From positions 72,974,001 to 73,038,000 of the forward strand of contig OX597828.1 of NCBI GenBank assembly GCA_951406725.2: 64,000 nt of DNA. The letters run 5' to 3'. The notes under the pieces were generated by a model. That model was not told where the DNA came from and did not search any database. It saw nothing but the letters and a program-made list of their open reading frames with translations. The position numbers and the translations under genes are program-made. Below are positions 3,460 to 60,087 of the stretch, piece after piece. Within the stretch, counting starts at the first letter, position 1. Every line of letters begins with the position of its first letter. The DNA comes from Octopus vulgaris. Taxonomy: Eukaryota.

Positions 3460-3756
3460 CTGGCACTCCGTCGGTTACGACGACGAGGGTAAAGATATGA
3501 CTTCCAAATATCATGTAAATTGTAGGTGCCAGCAACGGTTAATCGAAGTGATCGAAATTATTGCGGTGTTACCAATAACTCACAGATTTGGTAATATCAA
3601 CAGAAGGTTTATGCTGGAATCAGGAAAATTCCATGGGAAATGAAACATGTCTGAGTCATCCAGTTTTGAATGCCCGGATGTTGAGTAACAGCATTATTAT
3701 CTTGAATAGGTAAACGAGGACAATGAAAATATGCTTGCATTTATTTTGAACGTATG

Positions 3757-6700
3757 TTCTTCTTCTTCTTCTTCTTCTTCTTCTTCTTCTTCTTCTTCTT
3801 CTTCTTCTTCTTCTTCTTCTTCTTCGTCTTCTTCTTCTTCTTCTTCTTCTCCGTCTTCTTCTTCTTCTTCTTCTTCTTCTTCTTCTTCTTCTTCTTCTTC
3901 TTCTTCTTCGTCTTCTTCTCCTTTCTTCTTCTTCTTCTTCTTCTTCTTCTTCTTCTTCTTCTTCTCCTTCTTCCTCTTCGTCTTTTTCTTCTTCTTCTTC
4001 TTCGTCTTCGTCTTCTTCTTCTTCTTCTTCTTCTTCTTCTTCTTCTTCTTTCTTCTTCTTCTTCTTCTTCTTCGTCTTCTTCTTCGTCTTCTTCTTCTTC
4101 TTCTTCTTCGTCTTCTTCTTCGTCTTCTTCTTCGTCGTCTTCTTCTTCTTCTTCTTCTTCTTCTTCTTCTTCGTCTTCTTCTTCTTCTTCTTCTTCTTCT
4201 TCTTCTTCGTCTTCTTCTTCTTCTTCTTCTTCTTCTTCTTCATCTTCTTCTTCTTCTTCTTCTTCTTCTTCTTCTTCTTCTTCTTCTTCTTCTTCTTCTT
4301 CTTCTTCGTCTTCTTCTTCTTCTTCGTCTTCTTCTTCTTCGTCTTCTTCTTCTTCTTCTTCGTCTTCTTCTTCTTCTTCTTCTTCTTCTTCGTCTTCTTC
4401 TTCTTCTTCTTCTTCTTCTTCGTCTTCTGCTTCGCTTCTTCTTCTTCTTCTTCTTCTTCTTCTTCTTCTTCTTCTTCTTCTTCTTCTTCTTCTTCGTCTT
4501 CTTCTTCTTCTTCTTCTTCTTCTTCTTCTTCTTCTTCTTCTTCTTCTTCTTCTTCGTCTTCTTCTTCTTCTTCTTCTTCTTCTTCTTCTTCTTCTTCTTC
4601 TTCTTCGTCTTCTTCTTCTTCTTCTTCTTCTTCTTCTTCTTCTTCTTCTTCGTCGTCTTCTTCTTCGTCGTCTTCTTCTTCTTCTTCTTCTTCTTCTTCT
4701 TCTTCTTCTTCTTCTTCTTCGTCTTCTTCTTCTTCTTCTTCTTCTTCTTCTTCTTCTTCGTCTTCTTCTTCTTCTTCCGCTTCCCCTTCTTCGGCTTCTT
4801 CTTCTTCTTCTTCTTCTTCTTCTTCTTCTTCTTCTTCTTCGTCTTCTTCTTCTTCTTCTTCTTCTTCTTCTTCTTCTTCGTCTTCTTCTTCGTCTTCTTC
4901 TTCTTCTTCTTCTTCTTCTTCATTCTTCTTCTTCTTCTTCTTCTTCTTCTTCTTCTTCTTCTTCTTCTTCTTCTTCTTCTTCGTCTTCTTCTTCTTCTTC
5001 TTCTTCTTCTTCTTCGTCTTCTTCTTCGTCTTCTTCTTCTTCTTCTTCTTCTTCTTCGTCTTCTTCTTCTTCTTCTTCTTCTTCTTCTTCTTCTTCTTCT
5101 TCTTCGTCTTCTTCTTCTTCGTCTTCTTCTTTTTTTTTCTTCTTCTTCTTCTTCTTCTTCTTCGTCTTCTTCTTCTTCTTCTTCTTCTTCTTCGTCTTCT
5201 TTTTCTTCTTCTTCTTCTTCTTCTTCTTCTTCTTCGTCTTCTTCTTCTTCTTCCGCTTCTTCTTCTTCGTCTTCTTCTTCTTCTTCTTCTTCTTCTTCGT
5301 CTTCTTCTTCTCCTTCTTCTTCTTCTTCTTCTTCTTCTTCGTCTTCTTCTTCTTATTCTTCTCCGTCTTCTTCTTCTTCTTCTTCTTCTTCTTCGTCTTC
5401 TTCTTCTTCTTCTTCTTCTTCTTCTTCTTCTTCTCTCTTCTTCTTCTTCTTCTTCTTCTTCTTCTTCTTCTTCTTCTTCTTCTTCTTCTTCGTTCTTCTT
5501 CTTCTTCTTCTTCTTCTTCTTCTCCTTCTTCCTCTTCGTCTTTTTCTTCTTCTTCTTCGTCTTCGTCTTCTTCTTCTTCTTCTTCTTCTTCTTCTTCTCG
5601 TCTTCTTCTTCTTCTTCTTCGTCTTCTTCTTCGTCTTCTTCTTCGTCGTCTTCTTCTTCTTCTTCTTTTTCGTCTTCTTCTTCTTCTACTTCTTCTTCTT
5701 CATCTTCTTCTTCTTCGTCTACTTATTTTTCTTCTTCTTCTTCTTCTTCTTCTTCGTCTTCTTCTTCTTCTTCTTCTTCTTCGTCTTCTTCTTCTTCTTC
5801 TTCTTCTTCTTCTTCGTCTTCTTCTTCTTCGTCTTCGTCTTCTTCTTTCTTCGTCTTCTTCTTCTTCTTCTTCTTCGTCTTCTTCTTCTTCTTCTTCTTC
5901 TTCTTCGTCTTCTTCTTCTTCTTCTTCTTCTTCTTCTTCTTCTTCTTCGTCTTCTTCTTCTTCTTCTTCTTCTTCGTCTTCTTCTTCTTCTTCTTCTTCT
6001 TCTTCGTCTTCTTCTTCTTCTTCTTCTTCTTCTTCTTCTTCTTCTTCTTCTTCTTCTTCTTCTTCTTCTTCTTCTTCTTCTGCTTCTTCTTCGTCTTCTT
6101 CTTCGTCGTCTTCTTCTTCTTCTTCGTCTTCTTCTTCTTCTTCTTCGTCTTCTTCTTCTTCTTCGTCTTCTTCTTCTTCTTCTTCTTCTTCTTCTTCGTC
6201 TTCTTCTTCTTCTTCTTCTTCTTCTTCTTCTTCTTCTTCTTCTTCTTCTTCTTCTTCTTCTTCGTCTTCTTCTTCGTCTTCTTCTTCTTCCTCTTCTTCT
6301 TCTTCTTCTTCGTCTTCTTCTTCGTCGTCTTCTTCGTCTTCTTCTTCTTCTTCTTCGTCTTCTTCTTCTTCGTCTTCTTCTTCTTCTTCTTCTTCTTCTT
6401 CTTCTTCTTCTTCTTCTTCTTCTTCTTCTTCTTCTTCTTCTTCTTCTTCTTCTTCTTCTTCTTCTTCTTCTTCTTCTTCTTCTTCTTCTTCTTCTTCTTC
6501 TTCTTCTTCTTCTTCTTCGCTTCTTCTTCTTCGTCTTCTTCTTCTTCTTCTTCTTCTTCGTCTTCTTCTTCTTTCTTCTTCTTCTTCTTCTTCTTCTTCG
6601 TCTTCTTCTTCTTCTTCTTCTTCTTCTTCTTCGTCTTCTTCTTCGTCTTCTTCTTCTTCGTCTTTCTTCTTCTTCTTCGTCTTCTTCTTCTTCTTCTTCT

Positions 6701-7171
6701 TCTTCTTCTTCTTCTTCTTCGTCTTCTTCTTCGTCTTCTTCTTCGTCTTCTTCTTCTTCTTCTTCTTCTTCTTCTTCTTCTTCTTCTTCGTCGTCTTCTT
6801 CTTCTTCTTCTTCTTCTTCGGCTTCGGCTTCTTCTTCTTCTTCTTCTTCTTCTTCTTCTTCTTCGTCTTCTTCTTCTTCGTCTTCTCCTTCTTCTTCTTC
6901 GTCTTCTTCTTCTTCTTCTTCTTCTTCTTCTTCTTCTTCGTCTTCTTCTTCTTCGTCTTCTTCTTCTTCTTCTTCGTCTTCTTCTTCTTCTTCTTCTTCT
7001 TCTTCTTCTTCTTCTTCTTCTTCTTCTTCGTCTTCTTCTTCGTCTTCTTCTTCTTCTTCTTCTTCTTCTTCGTCTTCTTCTTCTTCTTCTTCTTCTTCTT
7101 CTTCTTCTTCTTCTTCTTCTTCTTCTTCTTCTTCGTCTTCTTCTTCTTCTTCTTCGTCTTCTTCTTCGTCT

Positions 7172-7218
<47 letters not shown>

Positions 7219-7755
7219 TTCTTCTTCTTCTTCTTCTTCTTCGTCTTCTTCTTCTTCTTCTTCGTCTTCTTCTTCTTCTTCTTCTTCTTCTTCGTCTTCT
7301 TCTTCGTCTTCTTCTTCTTCTTCTTCTTCTTCTTCTTCTTCTTCTTTCTTCGTCTTCTTCTTCGTCTTCTTCTTTTCTTCTTCTTCTTCTTCGTCTTCTT
7401 CTTCTTCTTCTTCTTCTTCTTCGTCTCTTCTTCGCTTCTTCTTCTTCTTCTTCTTCTCGTCTTCTTCTTCTTCTTCTTCTTCTTCTTCTTCTTCTTCTTC
7501 TTCTTCTTCGGCTTCTTCTTCTTCTTCTTCTTCTTCTTCTTCTTCTTCTTTCTTCTTCTTCTTCGTCTTCTTCTTCTTCTTCTTCTTCTTCTTCTTCTTC
7601 TTCTTCTTCTTCTTCTTCTTCTTCTTCTTCTTCTTCTTCTTCTTCTTCTTCGTCTTCTTCTTCTTTCTTCTTCTTCTTCTTCTTCTTCTTCTTCTTCTTC
7701 TTCTTCTTCTTCTTCTTCTTCTTCTTCTTCTTCGTCTTCTTCTTCTTCTTCTTCT

Positions 7756-7799
<44 letters not shown>

Positions 7800-8558
7800 T
7801 CATTTCTTCTCTCTATACATGTTTGTATATATATATGTGTGTGTGAGGGTGTGTGTCTATGTGTGCATACATACATATATATATATACATACTTCTTCTT
7901 TCTTCGTCTTATTCTTCGTCTTCTTCTTCTTCTTCTTCTTCTTCTTCTTCTTCTTTCTTCGTCTTCTTCTTCGTCTTCTTCTTCTTCTTCTTCCGCTTCT
8001 TCTTCTTCTTCTTCGTCTTCTTCTTCTTCTTCTTCTTCTTCTTCTTCTTCTTTCTTCGTCTTCTTCTTCTTCTTCTTCTTCTTCTTCGTCTTCTTCTTCG
8101 TCTTCTTCTTCTTCTTCTTCTTCTTCTCTTCTTCTTTCTTCGTCTTCTTCTTCGTCTTCTTCTTTTTCGTCTTCTTCTTCTTCTTCGTCTTCTTCTTCTT
8201 CTTCTTCTTCTTCTTCTTCTTCGTCTTCTTCTTCGTCTTCTTCTTCGTCTTCTTCTTCGTCGTCTTCTTCTTCTTCTTCTTCTTCTTCTTCCCCTTCCCC
8301 TTCTTCGGCTTCTTCTTCTTCTTCTTCTTCTTCTTCTTCTTCTTCTTCTTTCTTCGTCTTCTTCTTCGTCTTCTTCTTCTTCTTCTTCTTCTTCTTCTTC
8401 TTCTTCTTCTTCTTCTTCTTCTTCTTTCTTCGTCTTCTTCTTCGTCCTCTTCTACTTCTTCTTCTTCTTCTTCTTCTTCTTCGTCTTCTTCTTCTTCTCT
8501 TCTTCTTTCTTCGTCTTCTTCTTCGTCTTCTTCTTCTTCTTCTTCTTCTTCTTCTTCT

Positions 8559-18170: not shown

Positions 18171-18181
18171 ACGTTGTGCAC

Positions 18182-18306
18182 ATAAGAAACAAGGATATCA
18201 AGATATTAGTGCATTACGATCGTTTCCATCTGCTCTATTTAATCGAACAATGTAGCTGCCTGAAACGGCTGTAATGCACTAATACCTTGACATCCTTGTT
18301 ACTTAT
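18182..18306. repeat. inverted repeat (45-bp arms) built from hammerhead 3'-half sequence
   Basis: 18182-18226 is the imperfect reverse complement of 18262-18306. Each arm starts GAAAC-NNNN-GTA. Confidence 0.85.
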
Positions 18307-18405
18307 TTGCTTTTCATTCACCTTACTTCGAGCGAGCTGTGCAGGTAATTCCTGAGAGACTTGGTGCCTAATTCAACTGAATCTTAATTAATCCTTATAC
18401 ATATA

Positions 18406-46266: not shown

Positions 46267-46427
46267 GTTATGCCAATAATTCGAAGGATGGCAATAACTT
46301 CAGACATTCGCTATCGCTTCGCCACGACCCACATCTCTCTCGATGTTGGCAACACACAGAATTACACAGAAGACTTTCACTTCGAGACTCAATTACCACT
46401 CGGATCTTTAATATCCAACGTTAGCTT
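46267..46427 (+). CDS. VIT-domain exon of an inter-alpha-trypsin inhibitor heavy chain (ITIH3/4)-like protein
   Basis: Acceptor TATTTTCAG|G and donor TT|GTAAGT. Encodes VMPIIRRMAITSDIRYRFATTHISLDVGNTQNYTEDFHFETQLPLGSLISNVS(L/F), matching the VIT pattern S.I..RFA.T......N.......F...LP...I.N.S. Confidence 0.82.
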
Positions 46428-59103: not shown

Positions 59104-59126
59104 TATATATATATATATGTATATCA

Positions 59127-59624
59127 TTTCATGCTACTTCATTTTATTAAACACTGAAGTATTTTCATCAGTTTTAAAATGTTGAGCAATCTTCAGCCAC
59201 GTAAAGAATTTTAAAAATTAAATGGACAATGTACATTTTTATACTTATTTGCCAACATTATAAAGAGAGTAGATATATAGACAGAGAGGTTAATTTCATC
59301 ATTAAGAACATGATGGTAGTATGTCCTTCTCCATCCGAAAATTTTTTTATCCCTGAGTTCACTTTGCTATTTAAGATCTTAAATTAGCAAAGTGAACTCA
59401 GGGATAAAAAAAAATTTTCGGATGGAGAAGGACATACTACCTTCTTAATGATGAAATTAACCTCTCTGTCTATATATCTACTCTCTTTATAATGTTGGCA
59501 AATAAGTATAAAAATGTACATTGTCCATTTAATTTTTAAAATTCTTTACGTGGCTGAAGATTGCTCAATATTTTAAAACTGATGAAAATACTTACAGTGT
59601 TTAATAAAATGAAGTAGCATGAAA
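59127..59624. repeat. near-perfect spacer-less palindrome, ~250-bp arms
   Basis: Centre TTTAAGA|TCTTAAA at 59376/59377. The arms differ by a 6-nt indel, three small indels and one substitution. Confidence 0.97.
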
Positions 59625-59632
59625 CAATTGTA
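59579..59632 (+). ncRNA. hammerhead core motif at the outer edge of the palindrome
   Basis: CTGATGA-AAATACTT..AAGTAGCAT-GAAAC-AATT-GTA. Core boxes and palindromic loop III are present, but stem I does not pair. Confidence 0.45.
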
Positions 59633-60087
59633 CCACACTACCTTGGATATCCTTGTTGCTTATTTTGATTATAATCACCCCATTCAATTTATATGGATAA
59701 TACCATACCAAATTCTTGTGCCTTTAACTTAAGTACCATATTCATCTGAATATATATATATATATATACGGCGTGTGGTCTGTGTGTTTGGGTATATGTG
59801 TATGTGTATATGTACGCACATATGCACGTGTGTATGTGTGTGTGTGCATGCGTGTGTTATAGCAACCACGCCAATAATCGGAATGTATGAATCTGACACC
59901 ATTTATTCAGTTAATGGCCTCGATGCTATCATGCCACACATATTCAGTGTATACACACACACACACACACACACACATACACACATATATATATAGAGAG
60001 AGAGAGAGTGAAACGAGGAAACTTTAAAATAGCCAAACGCACACACACACGCACGCACACACACGCATGTACACACACATACACACG

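Follow-up and report, generated by a model that had tools for sequence, protein, structure and literature searches.

The most perfect palindrome by far in the analysed window, a stretch of 64,000 nt from Octopus vulgaris (C15:72974001-73038000), pairs two opposed fragments of the same retrotransposon. We tentatively propose, while rating the idea at slightly under an even chance, that its left arm was copied from the right copy long after insertion, by DNA synthesis folding back at the micro-palindrome TAGATCTA. Judged by its sequence, each arm is the 3' end (pseudo-LTR, pLTR) of a high-copy Penelope-like element (PLE) of the Hydra clade. The locus is mostly ordinary, one among hundreds of head-to-head Hydra-clade fragments, and the new points are modest: a predicted hammerhead ribozyme with a long helix II and the putative late copying of one arm.

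The arms (59127-59376 and 59377-59624) are reverse complements with a spacer of 0 and 95.7% identity in a self-alignment of the window; other self-palindromes found there are 65-76% identical. The arms differ at five places, by one substitution and by four indels of 1, 6, 2 and 1 nt, of which the 2-nt indel is in an A/T run and the last is close to the centre. An earlier note, written from the letters of the window, had described a spacer-less palindrome with five differences and a fold-back geometry, and both descriptions are borne out; CTGATGA at 59579-59585 and GAAAC-AATT-GTA at 59621-59632 are likewise present as it reported. It further placed the stop of the symmetry at GAAA. Strict symmetry, which begins at 59127, does run to 59624, but the left arm is probably 4 nt longer: in the BLAST alignment it reaches -4 relative to the predicted cut, with GAAA-T-GAT at its edge in place of the GAAA-C-GAT of the family. 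The left arm is bordered by (TA)n/(CA)n and has neither the 3' strand of helix I nor the cleavage triplet. The micro-palindrome at the centre is natural to the family (13 of 23 copies examined). Folded as RNA, the palindrome is predicted to form 242 pairs (-378 kcal/mol). The coordinates are collected in Table 1.

Table 1. Features of the palindrome and its surroundings (window positions, or C15 positions where given).
Feature	Position	Strand	Remarks
Left arm: inverted pLTR fragment	59123..59376	-	about -260 to -4 in element coordinates, counted from the predicted cut
Fold-back centre TTTAAGA/TCTTAAA	59370..59383		sits on the element's own micro-palindrome TAGATCTA
Right copy: 5'-truncated Hydra-clade PLE pLTR	59377..59751	+	-259 to +119 (minor 3' end), then (TA)n
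Unpaired tail of the right copy	59625..59751	+	contains the family +37..+41 end site, palindrome TGATTATAATCA
Predicted type I hammerhead	59550..59636	+	core CTGAAGA 59554-59560, GAAA 59621-59624, predicted cut after 59632; helix I GTGG/CCAC; helix II TGCT/AGCA around a 50-nt structured loop; helix III AC-AATT-GT (palindromic); U.U pair 59561/59620
CTGATGA	59579..59585	+	within the helix II extension; private change common to both arms
Second, older head-to-head palindrome	18178..18310		sister PLE family, 76%; both arms cut inside helix II, without the 5' core half
VIT exon, ITIH-like gene	46267..46427 (approximate)	+	AG/GT sites; tblastn with paralogous exons, E 4e-11
Next VIT exon	C15:73048576	+	paralogous exons; VWA exons beyond
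ITI_HC_C exon	C15:73067392	+	PF06668 above cut-off

A search of the genome (2.8 Gb) with 59377-59750 as query returned 3095 candidates; among the 40 of these that were scored, the closest other copy is 90% identical. A 25-mer of the family has 1227 exact matches genome-wide. The copies have a common 3' end and a variable 5' end, mostly running into (TA)n, and most 3' ends precede TATATA, that is, the elements sit in (TA)n, a trait of the Hydra clade. Longer copies carry the end of a GIY-YIG-like ORF upstream of the pLTR. These copies agree with the proposal of the earlier note that the sequence is a Penelope-like pseudo-LTR, and they show the linkage to ORFs for reverse transcriptase (RT) and GIY-YIG endonuclease (EN) that it had suggested testing. 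For example, L140 has the order inverted pLTR, RT (YRDD), EN, pLTR, with a pLTR 85% identical to the arm; L137 likewise has RT motifs (YRDD) and EN beside pLTRs that are 85% like the arm, and in the sister copy L144 the pLTR continues into an ORF. The Pfam GIY-YIG model matches the ORF of sister copy L145 with 20.1 bits (E = 8e-4), under the cut-off of 22.6, and Pfam RT models gave no match on L127, L137 and L145.

The assignment to the Hydra clade is based on motifs (DKT, RW, CxCX5C, CxxC, CxH, YRDD) and on the (TA)n target, compared with the definition in the available part of PMC8557442. The sequence PADKTGNLY in L137 and L144 contains DKT (not DKG), and L144 reads IRRIRWIT, i.e. RW but not RWK. 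The CxCX5C linker and the CxxC and CxH motifs, which in the clade flank the conserved E and N, occur as CNCRIRSKC, CELC and CIH in L125, L127, L128 and L131; no CxxC was found inside the GIY-YIG core of these four copies, which fits the Hydra criterion without CCHH (both by eye). A first guess, Nematis/Neptune, was dropped after comparison with the Hydra definition. As far as the same source describes them, the features in common with Hydra elements are a single ORF with RT followed by a C-terminal GIY-YIG, RW(K)-like, DKT, CxCX5C, CxxC and CxH motifs, (TA)n targets, a predicted type I hammerhead in the pLTR, the attachment of an inverted, 5'-truncated copy through its 5' end, and a one-sided tail. 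This tail measures about 95 nt here versus 30-40 in that source, and sister copy L144, which has an Asn-rich insert, forms a unit of about 4.3 kb, whereas Hydra elements are generally below 3 kb. Long in-frame Asn-rich runs are also seen in the RT-EN linker at L127:1285-3021 and L031:7451-8200. The hammerhead differs from that of Hydra-1_Obim as listed in PMC8557442, and two short family tags are absent from the text of its supplement, where line breaks can hide them. A literature search, mostly in open-access journals, returned no description of this PLE family or of a Hydra hammerhead with a long helix II; the supplements of PMC4209133 and PMC11167929 may hold similar hammerheads. The accessible text of PMC13282606 counts Penelope-like families and does not describe palindromes.

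The hammerhead proposed in the earlier note is supported as a prediction, of type I and with a different core. The note took CTGATGA as the 5' half, but of 30 aligned copies only the window's own has this heptamer, versus 26 with CTGAAGA 25 nt upstream (counted by eye). Other aligned copies read CTGATG-T or a variant, none of 123 other arms has the final A, and folding of 59575-59642 yields no hammerhead. The label 'minimal' does not fit either, as the core halves are 60 nt apart. Helix pairing was assessed in 49 rows, consisting of the window and 48 of 59 regular-expression matches (11 were dropped for deletions, a duplication or unrelated sequence). In this alignment 89% of the cells pair, 7 of 27 pairs changed on both sides and 0 of 500 shuffles scored as high; we note that the expression demanded the core, that the rows are related and that the structure was drawn from the same sequences. 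The covariation is support, not proof, for the putative ribozyme. The hammerhead region folds no better than its shuffles (z = -0.25), and Rfam Hammerhead_1 has no match on the window copy. Sister copy L131 reaches 19.6 bits with this model at E = 0.023, under the cut-off of 34, and its loop II contains an insert of 51 nt. The private changes at the locus shorten helix I.

Loop II, about 50 nt long, structured and with compensatory changes, differs from the 3-10 nt of 26 Hydra rows in File S2 of PMC8557442, the part of that source compared here; two spike-moss PLEs in the same table have loops of about 30 nt. The U.U next to the core (43 of the 49 rows are unpaired at that column) is also present in 14 of the 26 Hydra rows. 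With the minimal hammerheads of PLEs, as described in the part of PMC4209133 at hand, the predicted ribozyme shares type I topology, a short helix I and a palindromic helix III loop suited to dimer action; helix II there has 6-8 bp with G10.1-C11.1, whereas here it is extended and mostly has U.U. Further hammerheads with a long helix II are seen in related Hydra-type families (L131:2508-2600, L142:1069-1161, L145:728-821, L146:4892-4983 and one in L144), with altered pairs in helix I and the inner hairpin, some with G-C beside the core. In full copies of the sister family of the palindrome at 18178-18310 (L154-L162; 1317 candidates in the genome) the core is CCGAGGA or a close variant, in which C replaces the usual U4; helix I is formed by TGCAT/ATGCA, helix II is long, and GAAAC-GGCY-GTA is present. 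The earlier note had likened the flank at the palindrome's edge to 18262-18308; the likeness is real (18249-18308) but weak, with 74% over 61 nt and E = 0.003 within the window.

To place the edge of the palindrome within its family, we retrieved 80 regions, equal to 94 of the first 100 listed matches of the 25-mer; all close pairs were kept and six single matches on C2 were left out. Head-to-head pairs occur in 41 of the 80 loci. Measured from the predicted cut, the 136 arm ends fall mainly into two groups, with 62 of them at +28..+48 and 53 at +117..+136, and there are 2 at -12..+3, where it should be kept in mind that the anchor of each locus is a 25-mer ending in GAAAC, so that arms ending at GAAA are detectable only as partner arms; of the 86 ends of 43 head-to-head junctions, 1 lies at -12..+3. 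The expectation that inversions of this family end at GAAA is therefore not upheld: the ends peak at about +41 and +136, not at the cut, and the stop at GAAA is likely a coincidence. Short and long ends meet in 28 of the 43 junctions. Among the 30 pairs with two standard ends, 28 are mixed, 2 are short-short and none is long-long (P = 9e-7 versus 0.5). Six of the 43 junctions are symmetric within 3 nt, versus 1.2 expected (permutation P = 0.001).

Both main ends are located at TATA in the full element, which suggests that they pair with a nicked primer of (TA)n; the two internal initiation sites of PAc (Poseidon, Anolis) in the available part of PMC11167929 are comparable. According to that part, PAc also has two preferred 3' ends defining a tail, AT-rich targets and target strands that can both be extended. 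PAc belongs to a different clade; here the ends lie about +41 and +136 past the cut at TATA microhomologies, and 28 of 30 pairs combine short and long. The head-to-head geometry is itself known, since inverted 5'-truncated copies with one-sided tails are described for PLEs in PMC8557442 and pairs of hammerheads on opposite strands, 100-700 bp apart, are noted in PMC4209133, in the sections available of each. The junctions of L074, L082, L090, L109, L111 and L052 cluster in the helix II region (-65 to -37), centred on small hairpins of the element, and look as though cDNA snaps back there. In L082 the entire head-to-head unit is present in tandem, 1.1 kb apart, and the copies L057-L060, all of which end at +13, are almost identical to each other and lie in a 260-kb stretch of C1; both patterns suggest segmental duplication.

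The evidence that carries our proposal is the set of mutations common to both arms. Across 241 columns both arms depart from the majority by the same 14 substitutions, and they also have a deletion of 5 nt and an insertion of 1 nt in common; the best non-sister copy covers 9 of these variants and carries 3. Two variant tags match genome-wide only in these two arms, one of them even with a mismatch allowed, and a tag from the tail matches this locus only. Divergence from the column majority is 8/133 (about 6%) in the tail versus 16/234 and 17/239 in the arms. A tree of 60 arms joins the two on a stem of 0.046 (support 0.99) that bears tips of 0 and 0.008, versus a median terminal branch of 0.029. 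The ratio of shared rare to differing sites is 8:2 here versus 24:219 in 37 other junctions (summed by hand), and a single, thinly sampled subfamily contributes 11 of these 24. The ratio is 1:1 in each of the two other fold-backs, L093 and L177, that have no spacer and whose outer end is non-standard; L177 is a second fold-back at the same centre as the window palindrome, in which the arm is 22 nt long and one private base is shared. L046, spacer-less with standard ends, has no shared rare sites. L117 is a near-symmetric pair with both ends at +41 and sister arms, possibly a second, partial homogenisation.

Mutations shared by the arms and found nowhere else in the genome make an RNA or cDNA origin of the second arm doubtful. 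In the proposed order of events, the right copy would have been inserted into (TA)n by target-primed reverse transcription and would have decayed to about 6% divergence. A template switch during replication or repair would then have copied about 255 nt backwards and rejoined the (TA)n run, so that the outer end, at -4 to -8, would be non-standard and its closeness to the ribozyme core a coincidence. Since then the arms would have accumulated the one substitution and four indels. The proposal resembles template switching at quasi-palindromes, in which, according to the accessible part of PMC8604942, one arm templates the other and mutations are shared; that work concerns short repeats in yeast genes, whereas here the arm is a 250-bp transposon fragment and the mechanism is inferred. 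We rank late fold-back above a recent insertion from a missing donor and above homogenisation of the arms. Several points speak against it. Fold-backs of the family also arise at insertion (the six symmetric junctions), so that a symmetric centre needs no event at the DNA level. The donor could be lost or unassembled, and the search scored 40 of 3095 candidates. The comparison cases L093 and L177 rest on one shared site each. Young pairs such as L061, with 3 differences in 246, exist, hence recent activity of the family is possible.

The strongest competitor, which we nevertheless regard as unlikely, is a recent insertion from a decayed donor mobilised in trans. Its cDNA would have folded back on itself at TAGATCTA while the second strand was being made, and both arms would have received the donor's variants. 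The enrichment of symmetric junctions, the junctions centred on the element's own hairpins and the youth of some pairs (L061) are all in its favour. Against it, neither donor nor sister was found, the variant tags being unique and the closest copy 90% identical among the 40 scored of 3095; in most other pairs, moreover, the shared alleles also occur in non-sister copies. Scarcely better or worse placed, and also unlikely, is an old, ordinary head-to-head insertion whose arms were repeatedly homogenised by template switching or gene conversion, with the outer ~45 nt of the left arm later lost into (TA)n. Head-to-head pairs are the norm of the family, homogenisation of inverted-repeat arms via template switching is described in the part of PMC8604942 available, and L117 has sister arms with a shared stem of 0.021. 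But other pairs that form hairpins with loops of 4-17 nt have almost no shared rare sites, and the non-standard end requires an extra deletion.

The model of the earlier note, a fold-back from an RNA or cDNA ending at or near the hammerhead cut, now seems very improbable. The left end does lie between -8 and about +1, and the match could be taken to continue into the flank, in degenerate form, up to GTAC, though this reading overlaps the (TA)n/TATG run. The ends of the family are not at the cut, with 2 of 136 at -12..+3, about the number that an even scatter of the 21 non-standard ends would yield, and the arms share mutations private to the locus; furthermore, the available part of PMC11167929 reports no RNA-seq reads ending at the cut and finds cleavage unnecessary in vitro. 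That the palindrome is a fold-back chimera of the assembly can practically be dismissed, even though an extra T at window ~59384 is missing from the contigs of two runs and may mark a local consensus error, because the arms differ at five sites and the contigs of X2 and X4, from two studies, include the centre and 15 nt of the left arm.

These contigs come from 4 of 24 listed sequencing runs (X1-X4), compared over 59350-59750. Runs X2 and X4, with the same organism label, have one contig each that starts at 59362, spans the centre and shows no other letters. Their 15 nt of left arm lie below the 31-letter bridging rule, and one of the runs could be the source of the assembly; the overhang is probably what would remain of a perfect hairpin in a graph of 31-letter words. 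X1 and X3 have zero depth at 59350-59433 and do not cover the centre. The view of the earlier note that the structure is true and not chimeric is thus strengthened by the presence of the centre in two further runs. Without the extra T the centre is perfectly palindromic in the X2 and X4 samples, which may reflect an assembly error or a polymorphism.

As the earlier note surmised, an intron of an ITIH-like gene probably contains the palindrome: VIT, VWA and ITI_HC_C exons lie on the + strand on both sides of the site, and the exon arrangement supports this placement. The hammerhead then has the sense orientation. About 28 kb separate the VIT exon at 46267-46427 from the next exon that could be recognised, and the palindrome is inside this interval. 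PF06668 and paralogous exons led to the gene; Pfam searches on 144 and 147 ORFs of the window missed it, as did genome searches with VIT and VWA_3. Protein searches with candidate exons of the gene had no matches, and ESM Atlas gave only values <0.9. The RNA runs contain 0.03-0.12 of the words. At C15:19.26-19.39 Mb there is a cluster of nine VIT and nine VWA_3 matches in long open reading frames, the longest of 859 aa, which look like a tandem array of VIT-VWA genes without introns. Within the window, Rfam matches are nearly all microsatellite-driven miRNA matches (among the first 150 of 271 listed), and positions 3600-8500 form a long low-complexity tandem region with a periodicity of 9-15 nt. 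Nine other inverted repeats of 250-440 bp, with arms 64-89% identical, are mutually unrelated and probably MITE-like (flanks L003, L005, L010, L011, L013, L018, L021, L022).

In the + strand pre-mRNA the arms are predicted to pair as a ~242-bp hairpin in which the left arm would bury the hammerhead core, so that no cleavage would be expected. A bolder and very improbable extension is that PLE palindromes without a spacer whose outer end is non-standard form a separate class, derived from post-insertion DNA fold-back at pLTR micro-palindromes, and that this one was kept as its antisense arm silences the sense hammerhead. If so, a hammerhead with a long helix II would otherwise cut the ITIH-like pre-mRNA, and the antisense arm ends just past the catalytic core; the price would be ~245 bp of dsRNA open to editing.

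The family is more informative than the locus. Its two sharp ends and the short-plus-long pairing in 28 of 30 pairs provide a countable genomic footprint of the unsolved integration mechanism of PLEs. The long, covarying helix II is missed by the Rfam model in the window copy and is likely to be missed by short-loop descriptors too, so that counts of such ribozymes may be too low. Should arms without a spacer be rewritten once inserted, the identity between them would be unusable for dating insertions, and long perfect hairpins in introns could arise without new transposition.
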